The notes: generated from the letters alone by a model not told the origin. A stretch of 64,000 bases of DNA from Gammaproteobacteria bacterium (GCA_018819105.1 JAHJQV010000018.1:47787-111786); one strand, 5' to 3'. Shown: positions 27,133 through 43,861, numbered from the stretch's first letter. Translations and numbers: made by a program.

Positions 27133-30100
27133 TCAGAAGCGGTAGCGCAGACCCAACTGGGCGGCCCAGCGAGACTGACCCGGAATGGTGTCCACCAGCG
27201 ACAGTGCATTTGCACGGTCATCACCCGGGGTGTAGTTGAACAGCGGCAGGCCGGTGTCCTGATCGATGCCTCGGAAGTTGACCACTTCAGAGACAAACTC
27301 GAACGGTACCTCGTTGATCAGACCCCAGTCGGAATCGATCATGTTGAGGAAGTTCTCCACCGAGAAGAACGCTTCCAGCATGCCGAAGCGACCGATGTCG
27401 ATCTGCTGGATGAAGTTGATGTCCAGCGTTTCCACGGTCGGGCTGCGATCGGAATTGCGGCCAACCACGCCACCCTGGGCTGCTGCCAGCACCGGGTTGG
27501 CAGCGACCAGATCAAAGAATGCTGCTTCACCTACCGGGTCAGCATTGCCATCGCGATCCACAAAGATGGCTTCGCCTGGGTTCGGTACGAACAGCAGATC
27601 GTTGTCGGAGATGCGGTCGCCGTTGGCGTCGTTGTCAAACACCCACGAGAACGGACGACCTGAGCGGTGCTCGAAGAACAGGCTGACGATGGTGTTGCCG
27701 AAGCCGAAGAAGTCCTTGGTGTAATCCAGACGGAAGGTCCAGCGGTTCTTGATCTCGTAGTTGGCGGTGGCGCTGATGTCTTCGTTCGGGTTGAACACGG
27801 CGCGGTTGTTCCAGTTCGAGATGGCACGGCTGGAGGTACCGGAGTTGACGTCATCGGCATCGGTGCGTGAGTAGGCAGCCACGGCACCGAGGCGTCCGAA
27901 TGCACCCGACCAGCTGTTGCGCAGTGACGCCGACAGGTTGGTGCGCGTACCCTTGCCGGTGTTGCGCAGCAACAGCACGTCGTTGAAATCACGATCACGG
28001 TTGGCACGCGGACCGCTGGCGGTGGCGATGTCTTCAAAGAACACGTCACGGCCATCCGGCAGCTGACCGGTGGGCGCGCCCAGGTTCAGGTGTGAATAGG
28101 CGATGCCATTGGTGACCCAGGCCTGATCCAGTTCCACCGAGAAAGTTGAACCAGCAAGGAAGTCCAGCTCAATATCGACACCGAAATTGGCCTTGACCTC
28201 GGTCGGCGGGGTGAAATCTTCTTCAGAAGCATCGACGTCCTGAGCACCACCGGCGACTGCTCCAATGTTGAAGTTTTCCAGTGCCTGCGGATCCGGGTTG
28301 ATGAAGAAATTCGGATCCAGATCGAGACACTGGGTGTTGCCAGCGTCGGTAGGGCTGCTGCTGCCGCACTGGAACACGCGGATGGTGTCGCCGGTGTTGG
28401 TGAATGAGTTGGACACCCACACACCCGGCTGACGGCCACGGAAGATGCCGACACTGCCGCGGAACTGGGTCTTCAGATCCCAATCCGGCTGCCAGTTGAA
28501 GCCAATGCGCGGTTGCAGAATGGTGCTGTCCAGGGTGCCGGTGTTGGCAAAGCCGAAGGCATCGTTGAACAGCGGGTTGAAGGTCGGGGTGTCATCCGAG
28601 CTGATGCCCTCGATGCGGAACCCATATACCACATTGAAAGTGTCGGTAACTTTCCAGGAATCCTGGGCAAAGAAGCCGAGGATGTCGAAATCCCAGACGG
28701 TGCGCGCGTCGTCGATGTTGCCGGTGGTGGGCAGACGCTGCTGGAAGAAGGCACCGGTGTTGCCGTTCTCGAAATCGTCGATGCTGGCAAAGTTGAACTG
28801 ACCCAGGGCACCGAACAGGAACAGATTGTCGTTTTCTTCGCGGGTCCAGTCCACACCAAAATCGATGGTGTGGTCACCGGCGAAGTAGGAGCCTTTCCAG
28901 AACACGCTCTGGGTATCCACCTGCAGCGCATTGGCCTGACGGAACAGTTCGGTACCGAAGGTGACGGCACCGCCGCCTGAGGTTTCCACGCTCACCTGCG
29001 GTGAGATGGTCGGAATCTCAAAAGCGGTTTCATAATCGGTGTAGACGGCGCGGAATTCGCTGGAGAAGTTTGACGACCAGTCACTGAACAGCTGCACCGT
29101 GTAGGAATCAAATTTGCGGTCTTCGTTATAGAAGTTGGAGCTCAGACGGGCATCGTTGAATGAACCCAGATTGGAGTCGTTACCGCGGCTGCGCGAGTAG
29201 CGGAAGCTGGCGCGCTGACCTTCGGCGATGTTCCAGTCCAGTTTGCCCATCCAGCGCTCGTCCTGCAGGCCCACCGATGACAATGGTGCCAGCGGATTAA
29301 AGCCGAAACCCTGTGCAATGTTGATCACCCGCAGCAGGTCTTCGGCGCTGACATCACTGCCTCCATTGACCAGACCTTCGAGATTGGCCGGGGTGCCATC
29401 TGGCACGTTGGCAAACAGGGCACCGTCAAAATCAAACTTTTCATAGCCGACGAAGAAGAACAGCTTGTCCTTGATGATCGGACCGCTGACCTGACCACCG
29501 AAAATCTTTTCTTCAAAATCTGAGGCGCGGCTGCCGTTCAGCTTGCCGGTGAAGCCTTCATCACGGTAGTAGAACTTGCCCTGGGCTTGATACTCGTTGG
29601 TACCGGACTTGGTCACCGCGTTGATGAAACCGGCGGTAGAGTTGGTCTGGCTGACATCCACCGGCGAGACCTGCACCACCAGCTGCTCCAGCCAGTCAAT
29701 CGAGATCGGCTGACCGGTGGACGGCTGACCGTTTGAATTGAGGCCGAAGTTGTCGTTGGTGGCAACACCATCGATCAGCAGGTTGTTGAAGCGGGTGTTG
29801 GCACCGCCGATGGAGATTTCCTGACGCTGCTTGTCCTGCGAGGTCACCCGCGGGTCGAAGCGGGCGAAATCGTTGATCGAGCGCGACACCGAGGCATAGC
29901 TTTCCAATTCGAAACGCTCGATGACGGTGCCGTTGCCGATCTTGTCCGGATCAAACACCGGATTGATCGCGCCGCCCACCACTTCCAGCGCATCAAGTTC
30001 GGCAGAACCCGACGCCAGTGCGAAATTCAGCGATACCGGCTGACCCAGCTGCGTGCTAACGCCTTCCAGCACTTCGGCCTGGTAACCTTCGCTGGTCACG

Positions 30101-30351
30101 GTGACAGAAAACGGTCCGCCAACACGCAGTCCGCGGGCGTCAAAACGGCCGGTTTCCTGCGTAACAGCAACTGACACGGTGCCGGTCGGCACGTGTACAA
30201 TCATGACCTCAGCACCTTCCACCGGTTGACCGTCTTCGGTGGTGACGGTGCCGTTGATCTGAGTCGATACGATCTGTGCCTGCACCATGCTGCAGCCCAC
30301 GGCCAGCAGCAAGCCGAGCAGCAGCCTGGAGTCAACGAATCTCTTGAACAT
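27133..30351 (-). CDS. TonB-dependent receptor, Oar-like (carboxypeptidase-regulatory-like N-domain)
   Basis: 1072 aa with a signal peptide. N-terminal domain INGTVTTEDGQPVEGAEVMIVHVPTG, plug and barrel, C-terminal ...LGLRYRF. ATG 30351 has GAGG 6 nt upstream; the track ORF starts at TTG 30357. Confidence 0.9.
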   Translation of the reverse strand: MFKRFVDSRLLLGLLLAVGCSMVQAQIVSTQINGTVTTEDGQPVEGAEVMIVHVPTGTVSVAVTQETGRFDARGLRVGGPFSVTVTSEGYQAEVLEGVSTQLGQPVSLNFALASGSAELDALEVVGGAINPVFDPDKIGNGTVIERFELESYASVSRSINDFARFDPRVTSQDKQRQEISIGGANTRFNNLLIDGVATNDNFGLNSNGQPSTGQPISIDWLEQLVVQVSPVDVSQTNSTAGFINAVTKSGTNEYQAQGKFYYRDEGFTGKLNGSRASDFEEKIFGGQVSGPIIKDKLFFFVGYEKFDFDGALFANVPDGTPANLEGLVNGGSDVSAEDLLRVINIAQGFGFNPLAPLSSVGLQDERWMGKLDWNIAEGQRASFRYSRSRGNDSNLGSFNDARLSSNFYNEDRKFDSYTVQLFSDWSSNFSSEFRAVYTDYETAFEIPTISPQVSVETSGGGAVTFGTELFRQANALQVDTQSVFWKGSYFAGDHTIDFGVDWTREENDNLFLFGALGQFNFASIDDFENGNTGAFFQQRLPTTGNIDDARTVWDFDILGFFAQDSWKVTDTFNVVYGFRIEGISSDDTPTFNPLFNDAFGFANTGTLDSTILQPRIGFNWQPDWDLKTQFRGSVGIFRGRQPGVWVSNSFTNTGDTIRVFQCGSSSPTDAGNTQCLDLDPNFFINPDPQALENFNIGAVAGGAQDVDASEEDFTPPTEVKANFGVDIELDFLAGSTFSVELDQAWVTNGIAYSHLNLGAPTGQLPDGRDVFFEDIATASGPRANRDRDFNDVLLLRNTGKGTRTNLSASLRNSWSGAFGRLGAVAAYSRTDADDVNSGTSSRAISNWNNRAVFNPNEDISATANYEIKNRWTFRLDYTKDFFGFGNTIVSLFFEHRSGRPFSWVFDNDANGDRISDNDLLFVPNPGEAIFVDRDGNADPVGEAAFFDLVAANPVLAAAQGGVVGRNSDRSPTVETLDINFIQQIDIGRFGMLEAFFSVENFLNMIDSDWGLINEVPFEFVSEVVNFRGIDQDTGLPLFNYTPGDDRANALSLVDTIPGQSRWAAQLGLRYRF

Positions 30352-30449
30352 GTCCAACCTCTGAGTTTTGGAAAGAAAACAATGCCAGATGGCAAACTGA
30401 TTAGAAGGCGTATTAAACGATTGTTAAGTTACAACAGTATGCCAGTTTC

Positions 30450-30589: not shown

Positions 30590-31993
30590 ATGGAACTTTT
30601 TGCGCTCTTGACAAGTGATCACAAGCCCACCGCAAAGCTGCTGACAGCAATACTGTTCTGGCTGTCGCTGCTGGCGGGGCTGCCGTGCGCGGCACAGCCG
30701 GCTGATGCGGTCTCCACATCGGCTGTGAATCCTGCCACAACGCTAGCCGCCGGGCCAATGCCAGGCTACAGCACCGCGCAGGAAGCGGCGGTGTGGGTAC
30801 AGACCCGCGAGGCTGCCAGCGTGCAACTGCTGTACTGGCCGGAAGGCAGGGAGCAGCAGAGCTCGCGCAGTGCCAGCGTACAGACCAGACCGGATCGCGC
30901 CAACACCGCCACCCTGACCGCCAGCAATCTGCTGCCCGGCACACGTTATCACTACCGCATCGTGGTCAATGGCGAGTTGCTGCCAGCCACGCATTCCCAG
31001 CACTTCAACAGCCAGTCACTGCTGCATGAAGGCTTGGCTGATTTCAGCTTCGCACTGGGCTCCTGCGCCAAGGTCAACGCGCCACCTTTCGATGCACCCA
31101 ACTACCGCAACGGTGGGGATTACCAGATCTTCGACGCCATCGCCGAGCAGCAGCCGGATTTCATGCTGTGGCTGGGCGACAACGCCTATTACCTGCCGCC
31201 CGACACCAGTTCTGCTTCCGGCATGTACGGCCGCTACAGCCAGGTCCGGCAATTGCCCGAGCTACAGCGACTGCTCAGCAGCACGCATCACTACGCCATC
31301 TGGGACGATCACGACTACGGCCCGAACAACTCCGACCGCAGCTTCGGTCTGCGTGACATCAGCAAGCAGGTGTTTCACAGTTTCTGGGCCAACCCGGTGC
31401 GCGATGCTGCCGGCAGCGGTGGCATCAGCAGCACGTTTGAGTGGCAGGATGCGGCGTTTTTCCTGCTCGACAACCGCAGCCACCGGCGCGCCAATTTGCG
31501 CGTCACCGGCCAGCGTCAGATACTGGGCCCGCAGCAGCTGGACTGGCTGATCAACGCGCTGTCAAACTCGCTGGCCACGTTCAAGTTCATCGTCATCGGC
31601 GGCCAGGTGCTCAACAGTGGTGAAGTGTTTGAAAACCATATCAACATTGCCCCCGGCGAACGCCGGGAACTGCTCGACCGCATCGCCGCCGAACGCATCC
31701 CCGGCGTAGTCATACTCAGCGGCGACCGGCACCACTCGGCCATGCACATCATGCCCCGCTACGAACAGTATCCACTGCACGAATGGACCGTGTCACCACT
31801 GACCGCCAAAGCCTACAGCCCGGTGCGCGGCGAAGGCCAGTACATCGTTGATGACAGCATCTACACCGAACGCAATTTCGGCGTTATCAGGATCAGCGGC
31901 CCTGCCGAACGTCGCCGCCTGCAGATGATCCTGCACGACGCCAATGGCCGCGAGGTGTGGTCTACCCGGATTGATGCCGAGGAACTGCAGTGA
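30590..31993 (+). CDS. PhoD-like alkaline phosphatase / phosphodiesterase
   Basis: Signal peptide followed by metallophosphatase motifs typical of PhoD (FSFALGSCAK, FMLWLGDNAYY, AIWDDHDYGPNN, ILSGDRHHS). Confidence 0.85.
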   Translation: MELFALLTSDHKPTAKLLTAILFWLSLLAGLPCAAQPADAVSTSAVNPATTLAAGPMPGYSTAQEAAVWVQTREAASVQLLYWPEGREQQSSRSASVQTRPDRANTATLTASNLLPGTRYHYRIVVNGELLPATHSQHFNSQSLLHEGLADFSFALGSCAKVNAPPFDAPNYRNGGDYQIFDAIAEQQPDFMLWLGDNAYYLPPDTSSASGMYGRYSQVRQLPELQRLLSSTHHYAIWDDHDYGPNNSDRSFGLRDISKQVFHSFWANPVRDAAGSGGISSTFEWQDAAFFLLDNRSHRRANLRVTGQRQILGPQQLDWLINALSNSLATFKFIVIGGQVLNSGEVFENHINIAPGERRELLDRIAAERIPGVVILSGDRHHSAMHIMPRYEQYPLHEWTVSPLTAKAYSPVRGEGQYIVDDSIYTERNFGVIRISGPAERRRLQMILHDANGREVWSTRIDAEELQ

Positions 31994-32139: not shown

Positions 32140-34191
32140 TTATTCTGTTTCGAAGCTGTCCGCAAACAGAGCGACAATGTCAATGTCGGTGCTCTGATTA
32201 TTGGTCGGATTGCGGTCGGGTAATCCATCAGGCAGAGCGACGCTGACCGTATTCAGTACGGTTTCTGATTCATCGGCAATTGCGGTCACAGTCAGTTCGA
32301 TCAGCACCTGTCCAAAAACCCCCAGGTCTACACTGGTCTGGATATCGCCAGTGCCGCTGTTTATGCTGCATGCGGACGTTGCGTCTGCGGTACATATCCA
32401 ACTCGCGGTCTTACGGTCAAGTGTTGCAGGCAACAGGTCGGTCACAGTGACGGCTTCTACTGCCACCGGGGTCAAATTCTGAACGCTGATGTCATAAGTG
32501 GTCGATTCATCTGGAGTAACATATATCTTCTGATTGGATTTGGTGACCGCAATGTCCAGAGATGGGATGCCGAATACTACGTATGCTTCCCCTGCGTCGT
32601 CCAAACCATTGCGATCGGCATTGATGGTGCTGATGAGCAGGTCTTCACGGCCATCTCCGTTTAAATCGCCTGCCGCATTGACCTGCTCACCAGAGCGATC
32701 CTGGACCATAACGCCGTTCATCTGCATGCCGTTAACGGCGTCCACGCCGGGCTGATCGAACTGGCTGAGCTCGATCACCTGCTGTCCAGCGTTGGGTGGA
32801 CCACCAAACAGTACATAACTGATACCACTCTCGGTAAGGCTGGTATCGCCACGTGAGGCAGCGACCAGTACGTCATCAAAACCGTCACCATTGAAATCGC
32901 CTGCCGGGCTGATGGCGTTGCCAGCGAAATCAAACATTGCAGCACCATTTACATGCACACCAGAGGTGGCCGCCATTGAGCTGCCGTTCAGTTCGGCAAG
33001 ATGAATGCTTGCTGGCAGGTTGCTGCTACCAAACACTATGCTGGCACGACCGCTACTGATGCCATTAATACTGGCAAAAGTTTCACCAATCGCAAAATCG
33101 TTGACACCATCGGCATTGAAGTCGCCCACTGCACCAACCGATTCAAAGCAGGGATGGGCACAAACAATGGTGGCGCCGGTGACCGCCTGCATGCCTGAAC
33201 CATTGAGCTCGGCCAGATCAATGGCATCGGGCAACGTAGCGGAACCGTACACCAGATAATTGAAAAATTCACTCTGACTGTTTGTGCTGTTGGCGATCAG
33301 GATGTCATCGATTGCATCGCCGTTGACATCGCCCACACCACGCACCCGCCCGCCGATACGTTCATTGTCGTTAAAGCCGTTGATCCGGACACCCGCTGCA
33401 GCGTTGGCTCCAACACCGTTCAAATCCATCAGCTCAACAATGGCCGGCAGGCTGCCGTCGTCCTGGCCATACAGGATTATCACCTGGCCGCGATTGCTGC
33501 CGCCGGGTTCGATATCGGCATTGACCACGCCGATCAGCAGGTCGTCGACGCCGTCGTCATTGATATCACCCGCGCCATCAATGGAAAAGCTGGATTGGTC
33601 AATGGCCGCTGCGCCGCGAATGGTGATGCCCGGCGTCGAGTTGGGCCCGGTTCCATTGAGATCTGACAACTCAATGGAGGCTGGGAAGCCAGCATCATCG
33701 CGACCGAAGATCACGTAGGTTTCTCCGGCACCGGAAAATGTGCCGGTGAACGCGATCGGCGCACTCAGCACCAGATCGTCGATGCCATCGCCGTTGATAT
33801 CTCCGGCCGCCGCGATTTCCCGCCCGGTCAGGCTGCCGCCCGATACGCCCAGGATGGTCAGGCCCAGCGTACCGTCAAAATCAGCTGCTGAAAGCGTCTC
33901 GGGAAAACCACCCTGACGACCAAACAGCACAAACGCAGCACCGCTGTCGTTGCCGTTAGTATCATCGCCGGGCAGGCCGATGGCAACGTCGTCAAAGCCA
34001 TCGGCATTGATATCGCCGATGCCGCTGAGACCGGCACCCAGATTGGCAAACACAGTGTTGCCGGGAAACGTTATCCCGGCCAGACTACCGGCAGTATTCA
34101 GCTCGGCCAGTTCGACGACTTGCGGCAGTTCTTGAGCATGCACAGGGGCTAGCATGAGCGCCAATACGGCAAGCCAGCCTCTGTTGGCCAT
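32140..34191 (-). CDS. secreted FG-GAP (integrin-alpha-like) seven-blade beta-propeller protein with a C-terminal DUF11-type domain
   Basis: Signal peptide MANRGWLAVLALMLAPVHA. Seven GD(I/V/F/L)NxDGxDD(L/V/F/I) calcium-loop repeats. A DUF11-like region LDIAVTKSNQ...NNQSTDIDI. Ends ...VALFADSFETE. Confidence 0.8.
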   Translation of the reverse strand: MANRGWLAVLALMLAPVHAQELPQVVELAELNTAGSLAGITFPGNTVFANLGAGLSGIGDINADGFDDVAIGLPGDDTNGNDSGAAFVLFGRQGGFPETLSAADFDGTLGLTILGVSGGSLTGREIAAAGDINGDGIDDLVLSAPIAFTGTFSGAGETYVIFGRDDAGFPASIELSDLNGTGPNSTPGITIRGAAAIDQSSFSIDGAGDINDDGVDDLLIGVVNADIEPGGSNRGQVIILYGQDDGSLPAIVELMDLNGVGANAAAGVRINGFNDNERIGGRVRGVGDVNGDAIDDILIANSTNSQSEFFNYLVYGSATLPDAIDLAELNGSGMQAVTGATIVCAHPCFESVGAVGDFNADGVNDFAIGETFASINGISSGRASIVFGSSNLPASIHLAELNGSSMAATSGVHVNGAAMFDFAGNAISPAGDFNGDGFDDVLVAASRGDTSLTESGISYVLFGGPPNAGQQVIELSQFDQPGVDAVNGMQMNGVMVQDRSGEQVNAAGDLNGDGREDLLISTINADRNGLDDAGEAYVVFGIPSLDIAVTKSNQKIYVTPDESTTYDISVQNLTPVAVEAVTVTDLLPATLDRKTASWICTADATSACSINSGTGDIQTSVDLGVFGQVLIELTVTAIADESETVLNTVSVALPDGLPDRNPTNNQSTDIDIVALFADSFETE

Positions 34192-34263
34192 AGCCCCAGC
34201 AGCGTTTATGGAGTCAGTGAAAAACAGCATGTGAATCCTCGTTCTTGATTAGTCTTTTCGCAG

Positions 34264-36747
34264 TTATTCAAAGCCGTCAAAAAACACGATGCCACTGGTG
34301 CCAACCAGGGGAACAGATGTGTCATTGCTCAGAGAGACTGAGTTGGATCGAATCCGAAGCTCGCTTGTTACGATGCCGGGCTGAAACGGAGTGAATTGCA
34401 GGTCGACCGTACAGCTGCCTTGCGCCGGTACTGGTTGAGTGCAACCATTACTGGCGACGGCAAACTGAGTGTTGATTGCGATAACAAACGCTATTTCCAA
34501 AGGTCGGCTACCGGTATTGGTCAACGTCAAAGCTTCTATCGGGCTGGTTACGTCGACCGGCGTGTCCTGAAACTGAATGCTGCCCGGGCTTGCATTCAGC
34601 TCGGCGCCTGTGATCGGATTGGCGAATACCGGAATGGTCAGCGGTGAATCAGGAGTGTCCACGCTAATCGTCACCTCTGGCGTTTGGGACATTGATATGA
34701 ACTCATCGGTTTCCAGAATGACGGTCACCTCGCAGCTATCGCCGGCTAGCAATTGCAGGTCGCAGTCGCTCTCAACGGTAGTCGATGAAGAGCTCTCACT
34801 GATTTCCAGAATGTGCAATATCCCTGGTCCATTGCTTTCAATAGTTATAGTTCGGCTCTCATCCTCATTCGCCGGTTCAACGATATAAGTGCCAAAGTTA
34901 AATGCGAGAGGCGAGATTGAGATGCTCGGTTCCGGGCTGACCTCAATCGCTCCAATATCGGTCATTCCGTTGAACGTACGCGGAAACGTAAAACCGCGTT
35001 GATCACTGATCTCACTGTTGGGATTGTCCCCGGAATCCAGTACCACGCTGCCGGTATCGGGCATATAGGTTTGCGGACATTCTTCCTCACCAGGGAAGCC
35101 TGCGGTCATGAAGCAACCGTTGTCATCGAGCGAATCGAATGCCGGGCCGTCACTAAAAATATTGTCGACATTATTGCCGTTTATTTCAGTACTCGCGTCG
35201 CCGAATACAGATTGAATTACGTTAACCACATGGCCAAGGACATCGTTTTCAAGTAAAAAATTATCATCGAGGTTGTCGGCAAGCACGGTGCTGATGAGTG
35301 TTAGCTCCGCCATACTCATGGCAAGCTCCGGGCTGTAAAAAATGCCACCAGCATGGCCGCCGGCCTGATTGTCGATAACGGTGGAATTACTGATCATCAA
35401 GCCCTGGCTATCGCCGGAATAATACAAGGCACCGCCATTTGACTGTATGCCCGATGCCTCATTACCAGTGATGGTTGAATTGCGGATATCCAGATCGCCG
35501 GTCACCCACAGACCGCCGCCATGTGCTGCCCCCGCGTTGGTGGAGTTGAACGCCACGGTAGAATTAGCCAGCAGCAGGTTACCGGCGGCGATTGCACCAC
35601 CATGGTGACCATTACCGTTGGTTTGGTTGTTCCGCAGGATATTGCTGTCGGTCAATTCGATATTGGGGCCATAAATGGCACCACCGGGCGCTATGCAGTT
35701 GTTGCTTTCGAAGATACTCTGGCTGATGAAGACCACATTGTCTGTGGCAATAGCGCCACCGCCGGTATTCTGACAACGGTTACCGGAAAATCGACCTCTG
35801 GTAATTTCTGCATCGCAATCGGCACCAATAAAGACCGCACCACCAGCGCTGGTCGCGTCATTATCAACGAAGTCAAGACCATCAAGGTCAATGTTGTCAC
35901 CAATAGTACAGCCCGATGATGCAAACGCGCCGCCGAAACTCGCAGAGTTCTCAAAAAAGAGTGTTCCGCCACCTCCAGGTCCAAATCCAACAATGCTTTC
36001 GTATTGTCTGGCAAATATCGCCCCACCCATCGAGGACGGGCCAGCGGCACTGTTGCCAGAGAAAATCAGTCGAGGGCCTCCACTGGTTGTCAGCCTGCCC
36101 TGTTCAACATAAATCGCGCCCCCGTGTGCTTCCTGACCCTGGGTCGAATTGTTGGTAATCGCACTGATGATGCCGGAGGGTCTGATCGATACGTTACCGG
36201 TGCCGCCGATATACATGGCACCGCCATGGGCGCCATCACCCATCGTGGTGTTTCCATTCATTAGTAGATTTCTCAGCGTCAGCCTGCCCAGCGTGCACAC
36301 TGCACCACCTTGACCCGTGCCGGGAGCACAAGTCGCGGGCTCACTGCCGTTGGCCGTGGTCATACCATCCAAGAAAGCGACGTTCTCGAGCGCCAACAAG
36401 CTATCCGGGTTAGTGACAACCAGAATTCTGGAATTGTTGCTGGCGTCCAATGCAACCCGTGAAGCGGGCCCCTCAATGGTGACAAAATTGTCAGTCGTAA
36501 GCTCCAGGGGACCTGTAGTGATACTGATGAAATCGATGGATTCAGCGAAAGTGATTTCGACTTCATTGCTGCTGGCATTTGCCATTGCCACGGCATCGCG
36601 CAGGCTGCCGGGGCCGGCATTGTTGCTGTTGGTGACGACAAATTCATCGGTCTGTCCAGCATGGATGCTGCTGGAAACAAGCAACAGCAAGCTGCATAGA
36701 CATATTGGTAGATGGCAGTAGAGTGCCATGCTGTGAGGTCTCATCAT
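34264..36747 (-). CDS. secreted right-handed beta-helix protein (Pmp-like GGAI repeats) with two choice-of-anchor-D / ASH-like Ig domains
   Basis: Signal peptide MMRPHSMALYCHLPICLCSLLLLVSSSIHA. NAGPGSLRDAVAMAN start motif and many GGA(I/M/V)(Y/F) repeats. C-terminal Ig-like segments (ISISPLAFNFGT..., LNASPGSIQFQDTPV...). Ends ...GIVFFDGFE. AGGA lies 9 nt upstream of the ATG. Confidence 0.75.
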   Translation of the reverse strand: MMRPHSMALYCHLPICLCSLLLLVSSSIHAGQTDEFVVTNSNNAGPGSLRDAVAMANASSNEVEITFAESIDFISITTGPLELTTDNFVTIEGPASRVALDASNNSRILVVTNPDSLLALENVAFLDGMTTANGSEPATCAPGTGQGGAVCTLGRLTLRNLLMNGNTTMGDGAHGGAMYIGGTGNVSIRPSGIISAITNNSTQGQEAHGGAIYVEQGRLTTSGGPRLIFSGNSAAGPSSMGGAIFARQYESIVGFGPGGGGTLFFENSASFGGAFASSGCTIGDNIDLDGLDFVDNDATSAGGAVFIGADCDAEITRGRFSGNRCQNTGGGAIATDNVVFISQSIFESNNCIAPGGAIYGPNIELTDSNILRNNQTNGNGHHGGAIAAGNLLLANSTVAFNSTNAGAAHGGGLWVTGDLDIRNSTITGNEASGIQSNGGALYYSGDSQGLMISNSTVIDNQAGGHAGGIFYSPELAMSMAELTLISTVLADNLDDNFLLENDVLGHVVNVIQSVFGDASTEINGNNVDNIFSDGPAFDSLDDNGCFMTAGFPGEEECPQTYMPDTGSVVLDSGDNPNSEISDQRGFTFPRTFNGMTDIGAIEVSPEPSISISPLAFNFGTYIVEPANEDESRTITIESNGPGILHILEISESSSSTTVESDCDLQLLAGDSCEVTVILETDEFISMSQTPEVTISVDTPDSPLTIPVFANPITGAELNASPGSIQFQDTPVDVTSPIEALTLTNTGSRPLEIAFVIAINTQFAVASNGCTQPVPAQGSCTVDLQFTPFQPGIVTSELRIRSNSVSLSNDTSVPLVGTSGIVFFDGFE

Positions 36748-36762
36748 CGTTGGTATCCTGTT

Positions 36763-38925
36763 TTATTCAAAGCCATCTTTGAATACTTCATTGGCTTGAA
36801 GGAAAATGCCACCGACTTGCTGATCATCGATGAGTTGCAGTGAGCAGCTCTGACCGCTGCAGGCACCGATGAAATTCTGAAAAGTCGCGCCGGCATCGGG
36901 CGTGGGCGTCAGGGTGATACTGGTGTTGCCGGGGTAGCTGGCCGAGCAGGTGCCGGGGCAATTGATGGTGCCGGTGTTGTCGGCGATGCTGCCAGGGCCA
37001 GTCACCGTGATGCTCAGTACCGGGTCGTTTTCGATCAGCACAAACTGGGCGGTGGCGCCGCCATTCATGTTCAGTGTGGCGTTACACACCGGACCGCTGC
37101 TGGCTGAGCAGACACCGCCCCAGAGGTTGAACTGGCTGCCGGGTTCCGGCGTGGCGGTCAGCGTGATGCTGGTACCCGGCGGGTAGTCCTGCTGGCAGTC
37201 GCCCGGACAGTTGATGCCCAGTGGATTACTGGTGACGCTGCCAGCTGCACCGCCGGGCGTGTCAAGCAAAATGGTCAGCGTCACCGGCTGCAGATCAAAG
37301 TTGGCGGTGACACTGCGCATTTGATCCATGGTCACAGCACAGGCACCCATGCCGGAGCAATCGCCGCTCCAGCCAGCAAATACGCTGCCACCGTCGGGAC
37401 TGGGCGTCAGATTGACCATGGTGCCGACCGGATAATCAGCGCTGCATACGCCCGGACAGTTGATGCCGCCTGGATTGCTGCTCAGGCTGCCACTGCCGCT
37501 TCCAGCAATAGTGGTCTGCAGGGTGAAATCATCCACCGGATACTGCAACTCAATCGCACCGGCGTCGCAGAGGCTGCCGCCCATGCCCGGTCCACCGGCG
37601 CGCGGATTACCGACCGCGTCCGGCAATGTGATATCGCAATTGAATCCGGCCTCCATAAAGTCCACCGCCGGGCCATTGCGCAGCGGCAAATAATGGTTGT
37701 CGACTCGAATTGGATCGACAATATTACGGTAGTCATCGCTGAAGGTATCAAACCCATTGATACAGTTGTCCTGCTCATCGAGTACGTTGCCGTCAAACGA
37801 CATGTACGTTTGGGATGGGAAATTGGCGGAGCAGTCAACGCCGACAATGGTGTTGTTCACCAGCCGTCCGTTGCCGTGAATAATGCTGCTTCCATAAGTG
37901 ATGGTGCCGCTGCCGCCGTTGGCTTCCTGCACATGCATGCCGTCACCCAGCGCGCCGCCAGCACAGGCGTTGGCATCGTTTTGTACCAGCGTGCTGCGTA
38001 CCAGTTGCACCAGCACATCCTCGCCCGGGAAACCGGTATTGGCAATTGCCACCACATGAATGCCACCACCCACACGCCCTTCATTGCCGGCAATGGTGGA
38101 ATCGTTGAAAATCGCATAGGCAGCGGTCGGGCTGGTGGCTTCGATACGCAGCGCACCTCCAGTGCCGGCGGTATTGCCGCCACCACCGCGTGAACTGCCA
38201 CATTCGTTTGCGTCGTTATTCAACAGCGCGCTGCGGTTGATGGTCAGCGAGCCATTAAACTGGGCAATTGCACCGCCGCCGGTTTCAGTACTGCTGCTGG
38301 AGGTGCGATTGACCTGCAGCAGGGCATCGGTGATTTCCACCGTGCTGTCATCCAGTCTGAGCGCACCGCCAAAGGCAAACAGTCCTTCTGCGGTATTGCC
38401 GGAAATGCGTATATCGCTGAGTGTCAGATTGGTATCGGTGGCCAATATGGCACCTCCTCCCGACATGGGAAAGGCGGATATGCCGCCGCTCAGGTTCAGG
38501 TTGCTCATGCTGTGTGTACCTGTGTTGAACTCGAGCAGCCGAAACGCTTCGGTGCTGAAATTATCCCGGCTGATGGTTGCGTTTCGACCTTGGACAATGA
38601 CGTCGTCGACGATGACCGGCAGTGCATTATCGGTGCTGCCGTAGGCACTATCGAATTCGTAGTCAAAGTCTTGCGACAGCCGCAGGAAATCGGTGCCATT
38701 GCCCATCGGACAATCGGGATTCATGGCGCTGTCGGTGTTGGCGTTCTCGATGGCTTCGATCAGGCTGCACTGACCATCGGCAATGGCTGGATTGGTTTCC
38801 GGGTCAACCTCGATCAATGCGGCTTTCGCGGGAAGGACTGTCAGCATGAAGCTGAACAGCATCAGATTGATAAGAAGTTTGCTGCAGACACTTGTCAGGC
38901 CAGCATGGTTGGAGGCTCCTGTCAT
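36763..38925 (-). CDS. secreted beta-helix protein (choice-of-anchor-Q-like N-terminus) with three divergent InlB-B-repeat-like modules
   Basis: ORF 36763..39150. The signal-peptide-like start MTGASNHAGLTSVCSKLLINLMLFSFMLTVLPAKA at 38925 was chosen, with no clear SD, so the start is uncertain. DGQCSLIEAIENAN motif and GGAI/GGAL repeats. Three G-x-INCPG-x-C...YP-x-GT...LT-x-P...G-x-CSG modules. Ends ...EVFKDGFE. Confidence 0.7.
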   Translation of the reverse strand: MTGASNHAGLTSVCSKLLINLMLFSFMLTVLPAKAALIEVDPETNPAIADGQCSLIEAIENANTDSAMNPDCPMGNGTDFLRLSQDFDYEFDSAYGSTDNALPVIVDDVIVQGRNATISRDNFSTEAFRLLEFNTGTHSMSNLNLSGGISAFPMSGGGAILATDTNLTLSDIRISGNTAEGLFAFGGALRLDDSTVEITDALLQVNRTSSSSTETGGGAIAQFNGSLTINRSALLNNDANECGSSRGGGGNTAGTGGALRIEATSPTAAYAIFNDSTIAGNEGRVGGGIHVVAIANTGFPGEDVLVQLVRSTLVQNDANACAGGALGDGMHVQEANGGSGTITYGSSIIHGNGRLVNNTIVGVDCSANFPSQTYMSFDGNVLDEQDNCINGFDTFSDDYRNIVDPIRVDNHYLPLRNGPAVDFMEAGFNCDITLPDAVGNPRAGGPGMGGSLCDAGAIELQYPVDDFTLQTTIAGSGSGSLSSNPGGINCPGVCSADYPVGTMVNLTPSPDGGSVFAGWSGDCSGMGACAVTMDQMRSVTANFDLQPVTLTILLDTPGGAAGSVTSNPLGINCPGDCQQDYPPGTSITLTATPEPGSQFNLWGGVCSASSGPVCNATLNMNGGATAQFVLIENDPVLSITVTGPGSIADNTGTINCPGTCSASYPGNTSITLTPTPDAGATFQNFIGACSGQSCSLQLIDDQQVGGIFLQANEVFKDGFE

Positions 38926-39240
38926 GACCGAGCGCGCTGCTGCCACCATGCTGCCCGGCAATGTCGGTTTTGCGCATTTCCTGACGTGACACCAAGCTGC
39001 GCGTCTCTGCTCATTTGCTCTCATCCTTGCTGCCATAGTGACTTCTCTCGTCGTATCCAGTCGTGCCATAGGGCTCAAGCGGCCTTTTACCGAAGCGGGC
39101 TGTGTGTTGCTGCTATGGTTGTTACTGATTAACGCAACAGTTGCGCCCAAAAAGGCTCAAGATGGATTGCGCTGGAACGAAAAAAGTTGGCACGGTGGGA
39201 AACAGACACGCCTTACGGATCAGGGCAGAAGAATTCAATC

Positions 39241-39813
39241 CTATTGCCGGATTTCACGCCTCAGCCAGGTCTTGGCCAACAACCACTGGCGCTTGACAGT
39301 GGCCGGTGAAATATTGAGCGCTTCTGCGGTCTCGTCGATCTTTAGCCCCGCGAAGTAACGGCACTCGACCACCCGCGCCGCGCGGGCATCAATATCGGCC
39401 AGTCTGTTCAAGGCCTCGTCAAGCGCCTCGATATCGACATTCGGCGTCTCGCCAAGGGCAGGGTTGGCAAGAAAAGTATCGGCATGGCTGAGCGTGAGGT
39501 GTTCAGCGCCGTTGCCACGCTTGAGGCGCTTGCGCTGCTTTGCATGGTTGACCAGCACACGGCGCATGATCATAGATGCCACGGCCAGAAAATGCGCCCG
39601 ATCCTGCCAAGATGCGCGATTCTGCTGAGCAAGCCGCAAGTAGGCTTCATTGACCAAGGCCCCGGTATCGAGCGTGTGGCCAGGGCGTTCGCTGCGCAGA
39701 TGACGGCTGGCGGCCAAACGCAACTCGTCATGGATCAGCGGCATGAGTTCATCAAGGGCATTGCGATCGCCTTGTCGAGCGTCCTGGATCAGTTGCGTGA
39801 TGTGACCATTCAT
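39241..39813 (-). CDS. ECF-type RNA polymerase sigma factor, kinase-associated class (TIGR02999 / Sigma70_ECF-like)
   Basis: ITQLIQDARQGDRNALDELMPLIHDELRLAASRHLRSERPGHTLDTGALVNEAYLRL... and region 4 ARVVECRYFAGLKIDETAEALNISPATVKRQW. The ATG overlaps the kinase stop (ATGA at 39810-39813). Confidence 0.9.
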   Translation of the reverse strand: MNGHITQLIQDARQGDRNALDELMPLIHDELRLAASRHLRSERPGHTLDTGALVNEAYLRLAQQNRASWQDRAHFLAVASMIMRRVLVNHAKQRKRLKRGNGAEHLTLSHADTFLANPALGETPNVDIEALDEALNRLADIDARAARVVECRYFAGLKIDETAEALNISPATVKRQWLLAKTWLRREIRQ

Positions 39814-41897
39814 CGCTGGCTGTCGTTGATCTGCTCAAGGCTTTCCCGAGCCTGGGATACAAAGGGATGGTCTTCGCCAAGGGTGTTCGTGGCGATACTC
39901 AGTGCTTTCTGCAGATCGGCCCTGGCGAGCACGAACTCGCCCTGCAGTTCGCGCAACTCAGCGCGGGCGTGAAGCAGAAAGGCAGCATAGGGATGCTGCG
40001 TTCCAAAGGCTCGCTCTACAATCTCAAGAGACGCATCGTAGGCGGTTTCAGCCCGTTCGAGCCGGCCCAGGTCGGTGTAGATCATGCCAAGGTTGTTCCA
40101 GTTCGCCGCCAGATCCTGATCCATATCGGCACCGGGAAGTAAGCGCCTGACCTCAACCACTCGTTCCAGCATCATTGCCGACTCTTCCAGTCTGCCCTGA
40201 TCGCTCAGCGCAATTGCAAGCTGGTTGAGCGCGCTGGCGTGCAAGTCAGGCGTCGCGTTGGAGAGTCCATCCAGCACATCGAGAGCGTCGCGAGCCAGCT
40301 GCTCCGATCGGGCGTAGTTTTCCAGTCGGTATTCGGCCTTGGCCAGCTCAAGAAGACTGCCCGCATGGGATTCGCGATCCGTGCCGCCACGCCGTGAAAT
40401 CTCTACCGCTTCGGCCAGTGCATCGCGGGCGCGGTCATGGTCACCGCGCACTTGCAGCACGCCGCCAACGGCGGTCAGCACCGCGTTTCGCTCGGTGTCG
40501 CTCAGGCTTTCATTCTGGCGCAACCGTTCCAGGCCACGATCAAGCATCTCCGCAGCGGTATAGTCCCGCTCCGCGCGAGTGGGATCAGCCAGGCTAAACA
40601 GATCGGTGAGAAAGTTTGTCGTGGCCTGCGCGCGGTCACGCTCGAGGCTGAGAGCCTTCGACTGTTCGGCAATGCGTGATGCGGTCAGCGAGGCGAACAC
40701 GCCAAAGCCGATGGCGACCAGAAAAAGCGCGGTTGCAAACGAAGCGCTCCAGCGATTGCGGAGCAGGAACTTTCCCGCCCGGTAGGCCAGCGTGTCGGGT
40801 CTGGCCCTTACCGGCTGACCATGCAACCAACGTGTCAGATCGTCGGCGAGCGCTTCGGCGGAGCGATAGCGCCGCTGCGGCTCTGGATGCAGCGCCTGCT
40901 GGCAGATGGTATCCAGATCCCCGCGCAGTTTGCGGCGCAGACCCTCGGCCTTCTCGCCTCTGAGATGCGCGTGCTCGGGGACGACGCATTCCGAGGGTCT
41001 GGGTGGCCTCGGGTCCGATTGTTCTCCATGCAACTCTAATGGTGGTCGCTGGCCGCTCAATAGCTGAAATAGCAGCCTGCCCAATTGATAGACATCGGTG
41101 GCAGTGGTGACCATCCCACCTGACAGTTGCTCCGGGCTGGCGAAGTCTGGTGTAAATAGACCCGTGGCATCGGTCAGGTTATCGTCGGCATGCAATAACT
41201 TGGCGATGCCGAAATCGAGCAGGACCGGCACCCCCTGTGGGGTGACCAGGATATTGGCTGGTTTGATGTCGCGGTGAATCACCAGATTCTGATGCGCGAA
41301 CTGGACAGATTCGCAGATCGGAATCATCAGGCACAGCCGCTCGTCTACCGATAGCTTGTGCGTATCACTGTACTCGTCCACCGCGCTTGCCCCTTCAAGG
41401 TAGTGCATCGCGAACCACGGACGACCATCTCCGGTGACGCCGCCATCCAGTATCGATGCGATATTGGGGTGATTGAGCGCTGCGAGTATCCGTCGTTCGG
41501 CATGAAAACGATTGATAATGGTTTCCGAGTTCATGCCGAGAGCAATGACCTTGATCGCTGCATACTGGGAGAAGTCTTCACCGATGCGCTCGCCCAGGTA
41601 CACGGCGCCCATGCCACCGCGATCAATCCGGCTGCGGATGATCCAGGCACCGAGAGACTCACCAATCAGCGGGTCGTCGCCAAGAGCACTTTCTGGCCCG
41701 ATCGCTACAGTAACCGGCAGTGGCTGTTCAAGGAAGTCCGGATCGGAATCGAATTGCCGGATAAGGGACTCAAGTTCGGCGCGGAACGCCGGATCGCCAT
41801 CGCCAAGTCGCTCAAGCAGGCCTGCACGAACTTCGGATCGGGAGCTGGCAAGCGCATACAACGCTGTTTGCAGCCTTTGCCAAGTATCCTTTTCCAT
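39810..41897 (-). CDS. membrane Ser/Thr protein kinase with a C-terminal TPR domain
   Basis: Hanks kinase motifs RGGMGAVYLG, AIKVI, HRDIKPANIL, DFGIAK. One TM helix (ATALFLVAIGFGVFASL), then about 300 aa of TPR-like repeats. The N-terminal WQRLQTALYALAS...DPAFRAELESLIRQ segment is typical of sigma-linked kinases. Start is 41897 (MEKDTW) or 41936. Confidence 0.9.
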   Translation of the reverse strand: MEKDTWQRLQTALYALASSRSEVRAGLLERLGDGDPAFRAELESLIRQFDSDPDFLEQPLPVTVAIGPESALGDDPLIGESLGAWIIRSRIDRGGMGAVYLGERIGEDFSQYAAIKVIALGMNSETIINRFHAERRILAALNHPNIASILDGGVTGDGRPWFAMHYLEGASAVDEYSDTHKLSVDERLCLMIPICESVQFAHQNLVIHRDIKPANILVTPQGVPVLLDFGIAKLLHADDNLTDATGLFTPDFASPEQLSGGMVTTATDVYQLGRLLFQLLSGQRPPLELHGEQSDPRPPRPSECVVPEHAHLRGEKAEGLRRKLRGDLDTICQQALHPEPQRRYRSAEALADDLTRWLHGQPVRARPDTLAYRAGKFLLRNRWSASFATALFLVAIGFGVFASLTASRIAEQSKALSLERDRAQATTNFLTDLFSLADPTRAERDYTAAEMLDRGLERLRQNESLSDTERNAVLTAVGGVLQVRGDHDRARDALAEAVEISRRGGTDRESHAGSLLELAKAEYRLENYARSEQLARDALDVLDGLSNATPDLHASALNQLAIALSDQGRLEESAMMLERVVEVRRLLPGADMDQDLAANWNNLGMIYTDLGRLERAETAYDASLEIVERAFGTQHPYAAFLLHARAELRELQGEFVLARADLQKALSIATNTLGEDHPFVSQARESLEQINDSQR

Positions 41898-42318
41898 ACG
41901 GCAGCAATAGACCTGACTGTGATGACGCACAATCATTGCAACGATACTGAGTTGGTGTCAAGTCCGATGTCTCTGAATGCACCGTACAACAGTGGCCTTG
42001 AACTGATATCGCATTGGGGAAGACAGGTTTCATCAAATCATTGGCAGCAAAAGCTCTATCCGGGAGGCAGCGGCAAAGCTTGACAACAAGTTTCTGCAGG
42101 GCATCACTACGGCTGAGCGATTGTTCCCGCAGCGGATTTAGCTGAATTCCCACTTATCGACATAATCGGCCTTGGTCGAGGTTTGGCGTGCCTTGCACGT
42201 CGGTTTTACGGCCAGATTGAACCTTTCTGACTGCTATCAGGATAGTTGACTACGTAAATCTGTTGCCGTCAACATTGTTGGGCAATGTATAGGTTTCACT
42301 GCTTGCGGTATGGGTGTC

Positions 42319-42400
42319 CACGACTATCCCACGACTATCCTCCTCCACGACTATCCTCCACGACTATCCTGGGTGTCCACGACTATCCACACGACTATCC
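42319..42400. repeat. array of six direct CACGACTATCC 11-mers
   Basis: Copies at 42319, 42330, 42346, 42359, 42378 and 42390. Two are preceded by tgggtgtc (42311 and 42370). The last copy runs directly into the right 208-bp repeat. A degenerate inverted copy (ggatagttg) sits near 42240. Confidence 0.85.
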
Positions 42401-42596: not shown

Positions 42597-42606
42597 GGCG
42601 GCATGT
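42399..42606. repeat. right copy of the 208-bp direct repeat
   Basis: See 31796-32003; 207 of 208 identical. Confidence 0.9.
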
Positions 42607-43853: not shown

Positions 43854-43861
43854 AAGCGCAC

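Follow-up and report, generated by a model that had tools for sequence, protein, structure and literature searches.

Three secreted proteins encoded in a Wenzhouxiangellaceae-like MAG end in the same short C-terminal tail. As this tail is found on many unrelated exported proteins, at the position that known sorting signals occupy, it probably represents a tag for sorting or anchoring that has not been described before.

Three tails in one locus

The three proteins (P1, P2 and P3) are encoded by minus-strand ORFs of the window, that is, the whole 64,000-nucleotide stretch of DNA that was analysed. The corresponding features are:

36763–38949, minus strand: P1, tail-bearing secreted protein; CSLREA-like beta-helix and three InlB B-repeat (Flg_new_2) domains
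36766–36786, minus strand: P1 tail V-F-K-D-G-F-E, directly ahead of the stop codon (36763–36765)
34264–36747, minus strand: P2, tail-bearing secreted protein; beta-helix (choice-of-anchor Q, PMP repeats) and two Ig-like domains (choice-of-anchor D / ASH)
34267–34287, minus strand: P2 tail V-F-F-D-G-F-E, directly ahead of the stop codon (34264–34266)
32140–34230, minus strand: P3, secreted FG-GAP beta-propeller protein with a DUF11 domain and the tail
32143–32169, minus strand: P3 tail L-F-A-D-S-F-E with trailing T-E, followed by the stop codon (32140–32142)

The start of P1 is that of the public gene call, the longest ORF extending to 39150; P3 likely starts at the Met at 34191 (MANRGW...). 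The fuller C-terminal reads, ...ANEVFKDGFE for P1, ...SGIVFFDGFE for P2 and ...VALFADSFETE for P3, bear out the shared tail that the initial annotation had described, with correct ORF ends and stop positions, as well as the DNA string that it had noticed at the ends of both P1 and P2 (GAY GGC TTT GAA TAA). When a proxy proteome of the window (56 ORFs, 20,393 aa) was searched for F.D[GS]FE, three matches were obtained, all of them being these C-termini; given the amino-acid composition of that proteome, the chance of finding at least three such C-termini is about 7e-14. The occurrence of three tails in the window is real and non-random. Direct reading of the sequence assigns a Sec-type signal peptide to each of the proteins (...LPAKA/AL in P1, ...SIHA/GQ in P2 and ...PVHA/QE in P3).

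The domain architectures ahead of the tail had been considered unrelated, and this holds for P3 compared with the other two, but not for P1 and P2, which have in common a CSLREA-like N-terminus, a PMP-type beta-helix and a D[IA]GAIE motif (E=4e-4) and differ only in their C-terminal Ig-like domains. Choice-of-anchor domains had been attributed to two of the proteins; NCBIfam models D and Q recognize P2, but neither P1 nor P3 obtained a score. Another protein encoded on the same contig bears an IPTL-CTERM-like anchor.

Conservation, taxonomic range and cargo of the tail

The consensus of the tail is [D/E]-x-[L/I/V]-F-x-[D/N]-[G/S]-F-[E/D], followed by 0–3 hydrophilic residues, in rare cases up to about 15, and the stop codon. 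A relaxed form of the motif, searched in 240 homologues of P2 and P3, was found 70 times at no more than 25 aa from the C-terminus, with 25 degenerate matches elsewhere, which represents a C-terminal enrichment of about 96-fold. Within those 70 matches the residues F (69), D/N (65), F (68) and E/D (68) are near-invariant, along with L/I/V at position 1, and the dipeptides D-G, N-G, D-S and N-S prevail at positions 4 and 5. The protein ends 0–3 residues past the motif in 55 of them (maximum about 25), the trailing residues being acidic or hydrophilic (E, D, G, A, Q, TE, EIE, DEL). In 541,000 residues of long ORFs from the fetched loci, the strict motif lies no more than 20 aa from the C-terminus in 92 cases, most of these being the pattern-selected sites themselves, and elsewhere in one; in 120 homologues of P3 it is present near the C-terminus only. 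The sequences examined lend no support to the earlier statement that such strings more usually follow signal peptides. An acidic residue two positions upstream of the motif, a position that lay outside the search pattern, is present in 55% of the carriers, compared with 10% as background.

Orthologues of the three proteins retain the tail. Those of P1 end in EVFKNGFE (L006) or QLFVDSFE (L008). Residues G816, S818, G819, F822, G825, F826 and E827 of P2 are invariant in eight orthologues of 40–79% identity, and the F, D, F and E of the P3 tail are invariant in 23 orthologues of 35–91% identity, while the flanks diverge. Among P1, P2 and P3 orthologues at 35–79% identity the codons of the tail differ synonymously or conservatively, and all three stop codons are used. 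Conservation of the peptide despite codon changes indicates that selection acts on the peptide rather than on the DNA; judged from these alignments, the tail is under purifying selection at the peptide level.

A genome scan, which favoured GGC as the Gly codon and TAA/TGA as stops, gave at least 119 matches, 82 of which are in records named Lysobacterales or as generic gamma- or proteobacteria. Among the matches listed, the motif closes a long ORF in 79 of these 82 as against 6 of 37 from other taxa (p=3e-19), and several MAGs were matched two or three times. Judging from the same matches, the tail appears almost only in Lysobacterales/Xanthomonadales. Culturable bacteria that bear the tail include Dokdonella, Chiayiivirga flava, Tahibacter sp. 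UC22_41, Marinicella and Wenzhouxiangella. Four loci of 20 kb contain two to four tails each, and the control metagenome loci (814 kb) contained none.

Among 82 carriers, at least 65 Pfam families and 108 NCBIfam families are represented, with folds and enzymes as different as propellers, beta-helices, peptidases (S8 and M36), multihaem cytochromes and dehydrogenases; outside the tail, mean column identity among carriers is 6%. Enrichment of signal peptides among tail carriers, a check that the initial annotation had proposed, was observed: signal-peptide-like N-termini, called by a crude home-made heuristic, are present in 37 of 50 carriers and in 91 of 301 neighbouring ORFs (p=6e-9).

Comparison with known C-terminal signals

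No Pfam or NCBIfam model covers the tail, and our literature search found no paper on it. Eight attributes of small C-terminal protein-sorting signals have been put forward by Haft (bioRxiv 10.1101/2023.06.07.544157), and the tail displays six of them (1, 2, 3, 6, 7 and 8). The prevalence of C-terminal positions and the few trailing residues correspond to attribute 1, the three tails in the window and the multiple tails of other loci to attribute 2, and the near-invariant residues to attribute 3. An N-terminal signal peptide on most carriers (attribute 6) is apparent in P1, P2 and P3 by inspection and in the heuristic counts given above; many carrier pairs alike in the signal alone (attribute 7) are reflected in the number of protein families. 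Attribute 8, homologues from other lineages lacking the signal or bearing a different one, is treated below. The two attributes that the tail lacks are a strongly hydrophobic segment of TM-helix length past the motif (attribute 4), as carriers mostly stop 0–3 residues after it, and a terminal basic cluster (attribute 5), the trailing residues being acidic or hydrophilic.

The systems PEP-CTERM/exosortase, GlyGly-CTERM/rhombosortase, MYXO-CTERM/myxosortase, IPTL-CTERM and LPXTG/sortase resemble the tail in several respects. Their signals form the very C-terminus of proteins with a signal peptide and occur several times per genome; they are lineage-specific, with a short signature of three or more near-invariant residues, and occur on otherwise dissimilar proteins, including the same cargo (choice-of-anchor domains, M36 peptidases). 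Every characterised small CTERM signal nevertheless uses a TM helix and a basic cluster; the tail has neither, and the whole element comprises 7–9 residues. Because both are missing, the tail is not a PEP-CTERM, IPTL-CTERM or LPXTG signal, as had been proposed from the outset, and the inner membrane could not retain its precursor until a sortase, intramembrane or membrane-bound, acts on it.

In Bacteroidota, the C-terminal domain of T9SS substrates (Por secretion tail) is also a TM-less C-terminal signal on Sec-exported homologous cargo, which is read after export to the periplasm. That domain is a folded beta-sandwich of 70–100 aa restricted to T9SS-bearing phyla, whereas the tail is a linear element of 7–9 aa from Gammaproteobacteria. 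P1, P2 and P3 do not match PF18962/TIGR04183, and neither model figures among the 25 most frequent families in the lists obtained for the 82 carriers (65 Pfam and 108 NCBIfam families); identity with the T9SS domain was discarded, the tail being just 7–9 aa long.

Two further signals were considered and rejected. T1SS (RTX-type) signals are uncleaved, about 50 aa long, with a hydrophobic end, and belong to proteins lacking an N-terminal signal peptide and usually containing RTX repeats; tail carriers have signal peptides, and none of 18 PF00353-positive FG-GAP homologues bears the tail, several of them ending in ...DFLV or ...SFVNV. The OMP beta-signal consists of a terminal aromatic residue closing a beta-barrel, as in the TonB-dependent receptor of the window (27133–30357), which ends in ...LRYRF; in the tail the last conserved residue is Glu/Asp, and the carriers have soluble folds (propeller, beta-helix, Ig-like).

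Homologues of the carriers in other phyla exhibit another signal where the tail would be. The C-termini of homologues are dockerin-like, TM-plus-basic, T9SS or T1SS-like, and carrier homologues elsewhere bear T9SS, GlyGly-CTERM, MYXO-CTERM, dockerin or TM-plus-basic anchors. Carriers match the choice-of-anchor B, D, J and Q models, CSLREA, and M36 models named for their sorting system. A Marinicella M36 peptidase aligns to positions 240–780 of the 869-position model of T9SS-dependent M36 peptidases and then ends in ...DLIFADGFE. In these alignments the tail is positionally equivalent to known sorting signals on homologous cargo, and since the same cargo families bear either the tail or CTERM signals, the signals appear interchangeable.

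Candidate functions of the tail

The reading that we favour, and hold with even confidence, is that the tail may be a linear tag without a TM segment, which would serve sorting or surface retention and be recognised in the periplasm or outer membrane. Complete recognition elements of a few C-terminal residues are exemplified by PTS1 -SKL/PEX5, Hsp70/90 -EEVD/TPR clamp, OMP -YxF/DegS PDZ and beta-signal/BamD. Peptides read by TPR or PDZ domains are, like the tail, aromatic and/or acidic, and serve here as a working analogy only for the reading of a seven-residue tail: their spacing from the free carboxylate is constant and their last conserved residue is aromatic or aliphatic, whereas that of the tail is acidic and is followed by 0 to about 15 residues. 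Given this variable trailing length, recognition cannot depend on a free carboxylate placed at a constant spacing.

An element acting without any trans-acting receptor seems to us a minor possibility. The tail would then be an intrinsic structural or stability element, a beta-turn or hairpin cap with an acidic end, which either guards exported C-termini from tail-specific proteases and carboxypeptidases or stabilises the last domain. D-G, N-G, D-S and N-S, the dipeptides that dominate positions 4 and 5, are preferred turn dipeptides, and acidic C-termini are poor substrates for Tsp/Prc-type proteases; the variable trailing length fits as well, as does the fact that no machinery was found near the tail genes. 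AlphaFold2 models are less favourable to it. In P3 the tail is a coil past the last DUF11 strand, where pLDDT drops from 68 to 42, and in P2 it lies past the last Ig strand (residues 810–818) with pLDDT below 50; in both models it is left undocked on the preceding domain, although low pLDDT does not prove exposure. A low-confidence coil also lends no support to the beta-strand donation suggested initially. The variety of domains that precede the peptide (propellers, beta-helices, Ig-like domains, proteases and cytochromes) makes a fold-specific cap unlikely; protease protection alone would need no invariant F, D, F and E, and replacement of sorting domains in homologues and restriction to one order would be left unexplained.

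The gene order in the window (kinase, ECF sigma factor, P1, P2, P3) brings in two regulatory genes:

39241–39813, minus strand: ECF sigma factor (TIGR02999 / PF07638, EcfK/ECF43-like), directly upstream of P1
39810–41936, minus strand: Hanks-type Ser/Thr kinase, PknS-like, with one TM helix (residues ~390–414) and a C-terminal TPR domain

By topology, the TPR domain of the kinase is predicted to be periplasmic, and the sigma factor contains a Thr within its sigma-2.2 segment (HTLDTGALVNEA). In their sequence features (ECF sigma factor beside a Hanks kinase, TM helix, TPRs, sigma-2.2 Thr) the two regulators fit an ECF43/PknS-EcfK-type module. Xanthomonas citri PknS/EcfK (ECF43) is built in the same way, from a TM Hanks kinase whose TPRs are periplasmic and, beside it, an ECF sigma factor of PF07638/TIGR02999 type, and governs a T6SS (PMC13147305), whereas the modules of the window and of other Lysobacterales adjoin tail-bearing secreted proteins. 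P1, P2 and P3 form one operon, likely driven by the adjacent sigma factor, and the kinase–sigma pair probably controls expression of the three tail genes; the likeness to PknS/EcfK concerns gene regulation and not the tail itself.

The tail could, in principle, also be a ligand of the periplasmic TPR domain of the adjacent kinase, modulating phosphorylation of the sigma factor as feedback on cargo load or secretion. EEVD, PTS1 and W-acidic peptides binding TPR proteins offer a precedent by analogy, and the TPR domain of PknS still has no assigned ligand (PMC13147305). Besides the gene order of the window, a kinase or ECF gene is present in 10 of 82 tail loci (8 kb each), usually directly adjoining the tail gene; an ECF-kinase operon of Dokdonella fugitiva, met by chance, closes with its own tail protein (...DDVIFDDGFDPL), and a P1–P2 orthologue pair of 40% identity adjoins a different TPR-bearing regulator (Trans_reg_C + TPR). 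We nonetheless consider this proposal improbable. About 88% of the tail loci contain neither a kinase nor an ECF gene, and the TPR regions of tail-adjacent kinases are 15–26% identical with no conserved groove residues, as opposed to a near-invariant tail. The 80 closest metagenome relatives of the kinase (814 kb) are accompanied by no tail genes, nor does a different C-terminal motif recur beside them. The tail is not a general associate of this kinase family. A simple account of the adjacency is that ECF-kinase modules regulate secreted proteins, which in this order are often tailed.

That the tail is a functionless remnant (the opening strand or linker of a lost C-terminal domain) or a by-product of shuffling, the module-boundary scar that the initial annotation had offered as an alternative, is highly improbable and largely refuted: one internal occurrence, one tandem duplication (...FFADGFEGSDDLFSDGFE) and the F-x-D-x-F-E-like strings at the start of ConA-like and GH16 domains of other organisms would agree with it, but the internal occurrence is followed by 185 aa with no match to a known domain, the strict motif is otherwise C-terminal in the loci examined, and the tail is kept, with synonymous codon changes and a conserved acidic residue upstream, while the neighbouring domain diverges.

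The proposal of a recognition tag had been made at the outset; purifying selection, confinement to the C-terminus, lineage restriction, domain independence, signal peptides and the position shared with known sorting domains of homologues support it in part, but no cognate sorting machinery was identified among the neighbours of tail genes, where the sole recurrent neighbour is the regulatory kinase–sigma pair. As a sorting or surface-retention tag, the tail would act after Sec export and folding, which would leave the acidic-aromatic peptide exposed. A conserved factor in the periplasm or outer membrane would then recognise it in trans and either send the protein across the cell surface or anchor it there. 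In Lysobacterales, the tail may thus stand in for the T9SS C-terminal domain and the GlyGly-CTERM, MYXO-CTERM, dockerin or TM-plus-basic anchors of other lineages.

The P1-P2-P3 operon and its products

The tail, an FxDGFE-like C-terminal peptide of consensus [LIV]-F-x-[DN]-[GS]-F-[ED] followed within a few residues by the stop codon, closes three neighbouring secreted proteins (P1, P2 and P3). The genes considered here are:

39810–41936, minus strand: Ser/Thr kinase gene, upstream of the operon together with the ECF sigma gene
39241–39813: ECF sigma gene, directly upstream of the operon
36763–38949 (public gene call; longest ORF to 39150), minus strand: P1, ending ...ANEVFKDGFE, stop
34264–36747, minus strand: P2, ending ...SGIVFFDGFE, stop
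32140–34230, minus strand: P3, ending ...VALFADSFETE, stop

Translation of the three genes confirmed the C-terminal ends given in the initial annotation, and the P1 and P2 genes have GAY GGC TTT GAA TAA in common at their ends. A Sec-type signal peptide could be read directly from each translation. As the intergenic gaps are 15 and 33 nt long and a promoter/terminator scan found no terminator-like site at either junction, we consider that P1, P2 and P3 constitute one operon. P1 comprises a CSLREA-like N-terminus, a PMP-type beta-helix and three InlB B-repeat domains; P2, a beta-helix of the P1 type (choice-of-anchor Q) and two Ig-like domains (choice-of-anchor D/ASH); P3, an FG-GAP propeller and DUF11. 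The architectures had been described initially as unrelated, which does not hold for P1 versus P2: because they share the same helix type, their N-terminal halves are, judged from sequence, distant paralogues. Choice-of-anchor domains had likewise been attributed to two of the proteins, and P2 is the only one that scores on those models. Relatives more than 90% identical to the window proteins are found under GAB41192xx ("Wenzhouxiangellaceae bacterium"), and identical entries under MBU11879xx.

The three genes lie in a single reading frame (32140–39150, minus strand), an arrangement with a chance expectation of about 1 in 9. Between P1 and P2 there is just one TAA plus 15 nt, and P2, taken as a stop-to-stop ORF, borders on the P1 stop. 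Since all three genes possess starts and signal peptides of their own, the shared frame is probably a coincidence or the trace of a tandem duplication. A single split ORF expressed by read-through was rejected, as P2 and P3 each begin with an RBS-spaced start and a signal peptide, and the stops are kept in the orthologues. In a 76%-identical relative (locus L006, 12469–12888) the P3 orthologue is cut down to a 139-aa FG-GAP fragment while P1, P2 and both tails are intact, so that P3 is dispensable in that strain.

Immediately downstream of P3 are a TonB-dependent receptor gene and a convergent PhoD-like phosphatase gene, at 27133–30357 (minus strand) and 30590–31993 (plus strand). The receptor has a CarboxypepD_reg N-domain and an ordinary OMP beta-signal end (...LRYRF), and, at E<=0.01, is matched by none of the NCBIfam models. 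A stretch of lower GC content (53%; about 42300–44000) directly upstream of the kinase operon carries HicB-like, PemK/MazE and other small toxin-antitoxin genes. Gene calls in the region of 60283–61107 include an IS200/IS605-type Y1 transposase, a NERD protein and a LexA-ImuB/DinB-like SOS cassette.

Conservation, taxonomic range and carriers of the tail

Within the window, represented by a proxy proteome of 56 ORFs, F.D[GS]FE is present just three times, always at the C-termini of P1–P3. Origin by chance or composition is ruled out by the composition-based probability of three such C-termini (about 7e-14) together with 80 GC-rich metagenome control loci (814 kb, 417 ORFs of >=200 aa), in which no tail was found. 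The observation of a shared tail was moreover extended beyond the operon, to 240 homologues, a genome scan and 82 proteins ending in the tail (carriers).

Orthologues of P2 at 40–79% identity end in GIVFFDGFE(D), GIVFIDGFE, GIIFINGFEG, GVIFSDGFEG or GILFMDGFEA, and those of P1 in EVFKNGFE or QLFVDSFE. Across 23 P3 orthologues (35–91% identity) the tail never varies at F, D, F and E, and in eight P2 orthologues the same holds for G816, S818, G819, F822, G825, F826 and E827. Tail codons differ synonymously among orthologues (TTC/TTT, GAA/GAG, GAC/GAT) and TAA, TGA and TAG are all in use, which indicates selection on the peptide and led us to reject a DNA-level element, an idea raised by the common GAYGGCTTTGAATAA string.

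The motif closes 69 of the 240 P2 and P3 homologues and is about 96-fold enriched within their last 25 residues, being followed by 0, 1, 2, 3 or more residues in 21, 12, 11, 11 and 15 cases, respectively. In the tail loci, the sequence after the one internal strict motif (locus L054) gave no family hit. The domain preceding the motif varies and may be DUF11, an FG-GAP blade (...SSYVVFG plus 4–10 aa), choice-of-anchor D, the DIGAxE end of choice-of-anchor Q or InlB B-repeats. Two positions ahead of [LIV]F, an acidic residue is present in 55% of 77 diverse carriers, against a background of 10%; this position lies outside the search pattern. The full element therefore spans about nine residues, [DE]-x-[LIV]-F-x-[DN]-[GS]-F-[ED]. 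A Lysobacterales protein (L034, 254–3817, plus strand) bears a tandem double tail, ...SFFADGFEGSDDLFSDGFE before the stop, which suggests that the element is able to duplicate as a unit.

To cover a wider range, 185,579 species genomes were scanned with the codon-biased pattern [hydrophobic]-F-x-D-G(GGC)-F-E-stop, yielding at least 119 loci, and matches were grouped by the names on their records. Among the matches listed, 65 of 68 with Lysobacterales-type names (Lysobacterales, Lysobacteraceae, Rhodanobacteraceae, Dokdonella, Chiayiivirga, Aquimonas, Ahniella(ceae), Rudaea, Tahibacter, Wenzhouxiangellaceae, Marinicella and one Xanthomonas MAG) close a long ORF, as do all 14 from records labelled just Gamma- or Proteobacteria, versus 6 of 37 from all other taxa, the remainder being short chance ORFs (contingency test on the matches listed, p=3e-19). 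Cultured carriers are Chiayiivirga flava DSM 24163, Dokdonella ginsengisoli, Dokdonella fugitiva, Tahibacter sp. UC22_41, Marinicella marina and Marinicella meishanensis. Isolates of Xanthomonas, Stenotrophomonas, Lysobacter and Rhodanobacter do not appear among the matches listed, and this absence may be the reason why the motif escaped notice.

The 82 carriers fall into 65 Pfam and 108 NCBIfam families, including DUF5122/delta-60 propellers, beta-helices, InhA-MAM, M36 and S8 peptidases, FG-GAP proteins, an MtrC-like multihaem cytochrome and PQQ dehydrogenases. Enrichment of the tail on signal-peptide proteins, one of the checks proposed in the initial annotation, was borne out with a crude home-made heuristic, by which 37 of 50 carriers were positive compared with 91 of 301 neighbouring ORFs (p=6e-9). 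Tail genes cluster, with two to four in each of six loci (L019, L025, L063, L102, L213 and L215), and second, unselected ones occur in L209 and L211. Four are consecutive in L215 (1–14334 and 15615–18728); one product exceeds 2,900 aa, and another is a Pel9A-like beta-helix with 16 residues after the tail. In L209 (10001–12559; a Dokdonella fugitiva beta-helix protein) and L211 (10001–11629; an FG-GAP protein of a Rhodanobacteraceae MAG), unrelated tail genes interrupt one and the same conserved housekeeping cluster, miaB-phoH-ybeY-corC-Lnb(DUF4105)-corA, at positions that differ slightly; the cluster holds a homologue of the Bacteroidota-type lipoprotein N-acyltransferase (PF13387).

Predicted structure and the kinase/ECF sigma link

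AlphaFold2 models of P3 and P2 (mean pLDDT 89 and 75) place the tail directly after the last beta-strand of the final domain, as a coil in which confidence drops (from 68 to 42 in P3, below 50 in P2); in neither is it predicted to dock on, or to complete, the preceding fold. These models speak for a linear motif that is read in trans, rather than for a structural cap or a strand donated within the molecule, and an intrinsic stability or turn element is an explanation that we consider unlikely.

When about 514 ORFs of the 82 tail loci were clustered, the sole recurrent non-tail families were the kinase and the ECF sigma factor; no sorting-enzyme family emerged among the neighbours. A transmembrane Hanks kinase with periplasmic TPRs is present in nine of the loci and an ECF sigma factor of the window type in three (kinase or ECF in ten altogether), usually directly adjoining the tail gene. 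A Dokdonella fugitiva ECF-kinase operon, met by chance, has as its last product a 769-aa protein ending in ...DDVIFDDGFDPL. The architecture of the window pair matches that of Xanthomonas citri PknS/EcfK (ECF43), in which the kinase phosphorylates the sigma factor (PMC13147305).

This adjacency could be taken to mean that the tail is the ligand of the TPR kinases, their TPR domain acting as receptor or sensor. We find this quite improbable: the TPR regions of tail-adjacent kinases are just 15–26% identical, about 88% of tail loci do not carry the module, and the neighbourhoods of the 80 nearest metagenomic kinase relatives contain neither tails nor any other common C-terminal motif. Most simply, the kinase/ECF modules would regulate secreted proteins, which in this order are mostly tail-bearing. 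The least tenable explanation of all, a functionless scar, hardly deserves credence.

The TPR region of the window kinase matches the NCBIfam "FxSxx-COOH system tetratricopeptide repeat protein" (E=4e-17) below threshold (62 bits against a cutoff of 300), which probably reflects generic TPR similarity. In locus L008 (12640–14985, minus strand), the neighbouring regulator is no kinase/sigma pair but a TPR-repeat protein of 781 aa with Trans_reg_C (OmpR/ToxR-type DNA binding); the P1-P2 orthologues there are just about 40% identical, and an RHS/YD-repeat toxin gene lies upstream.

Comparison with known sorting signals and significance

To our knowledge, all characterised small C-terminal sorting signals of prokaryotes use a membrane-spanning segment or a folded domain. 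Scans of P1–P3 and the 82 carriers gave no Pfam or NCBIfam model covering the tail, nor was a description of it found in the literature on the motif, Wenzhouxiangella, IPTL-CTERM and myxosortase. P2/P3 homologues from other phyla end in dockerin-like or GC-type modules, in a TM helix plus basic cluster, or in T9SS domains (PF18962), while RTX-bearing FG-GAP homologues have T1SS-like ...DFLV ends and none of 18 RTX-positive homologues has the tail. Carriers match the NCBIfam models for choice-of-anchor B, D, J and Q, CSLREA, rhombotarget A and ExeM/NucH, as well as three M36 families named after their sorters (rhombosortase-, myxosortase- and T9SS-dependent). A Marinicella M36 peptidase aligns to positions 240–780 of the 869-position T9SS-dependent model (781 bits) and has a ...DSDLIFADGFE end in place of the T9SS C-terminal domain.

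Of the eight attributes by which Haft (bioRxiv 10.1101/2023.06.07.544157) characterises small C-terminal sorting signals, the tail displays six: a position close to the terminus, several copies per genome, three or more residues that do not vary, carriers that have signal peptides, carriers with no further relationship, and homologues with other signals. Exactly two are lacking, the TM helix and the basic cluster, which places the tail outside the CTERM signals of tripartite build; nor does it belong with the T9SS CTDs, the T1SS signals or the OMP beta-signals. On these comparative grounds, the tail behaves like a sorting signal. IPTL-CTERM is found in the same organisms, both in L215, where a 1037-aa multi-DUF11 protein beside the four tail genes has a textbook signal (FAIPTLS, TM segment, RRH), and in the window:

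50155–51747, plus strand: choice-of-anchor I protein (NF038117, 554 bits), ending ...VPAISHFGLLTLALLLLLVGGFIAARRQP

With its motif, TM helix and basic cluster, this end is a tripartite anchor of the IPTL-CTERM-like kind; the organism thus uses a classical CTERM signal besides the tail. The short signal itself scores on no NCBIfam model at E<=0.01.

The most probable explanation, to which we give about even odds, is that the tail is a hitherto undescribed linear tag at the C-terminus, devoid of a TM segment, by which Sec-exported Xanthomonadales proteins are sorted or retained at the surface and which a putative envelope machinery would read. More tentatively, with belief falling somewhat short of that mark, FxDGFE-COOH may represent a new class of sorting signal without a TM segment, routing Sec-exported cargo to the Xanthomonadales surface via a putative receptor or transpeptidase and interchangeable with T9SS CTD, GlyGly-CTERM and MYXO-CTERM. 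The cargo of this 7–9-residue tag would comprise numerous adhesin-like proteins, proteases and cytochromes, its receptor or transpeptidase would sit in the periplasm or outer membrane, and the tail would swap functionally with those three signals. Monitoring of the periplasmic tail level by TPR sensors of ECF43-type kinases, as an extra layer, is less likely. Succinimide or "clip-and-link" chemistry at [DN]-[GS], PDZ (GspC) recognition and Ca2+/LPS bridging were only considered.

If sorting by the tail is true, a soluble tag of 7–9 residues would lead to a sorting or anchoring route so far never looked for, in an order that includes plant pathogens, proteolytic bacteria of wastewater and soda lakes, and predatory bacteria. 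A one-line rule would then predict which proteins of these organisms are secreted or reach the surface; at present, many carriers are annotated just as "hypothetical" or "FG-GAP repeat protein". The tail would also provide a minimal tag for surface display and a concrete handle on the targets regulated by ECF43-type kinase-sigma modules.
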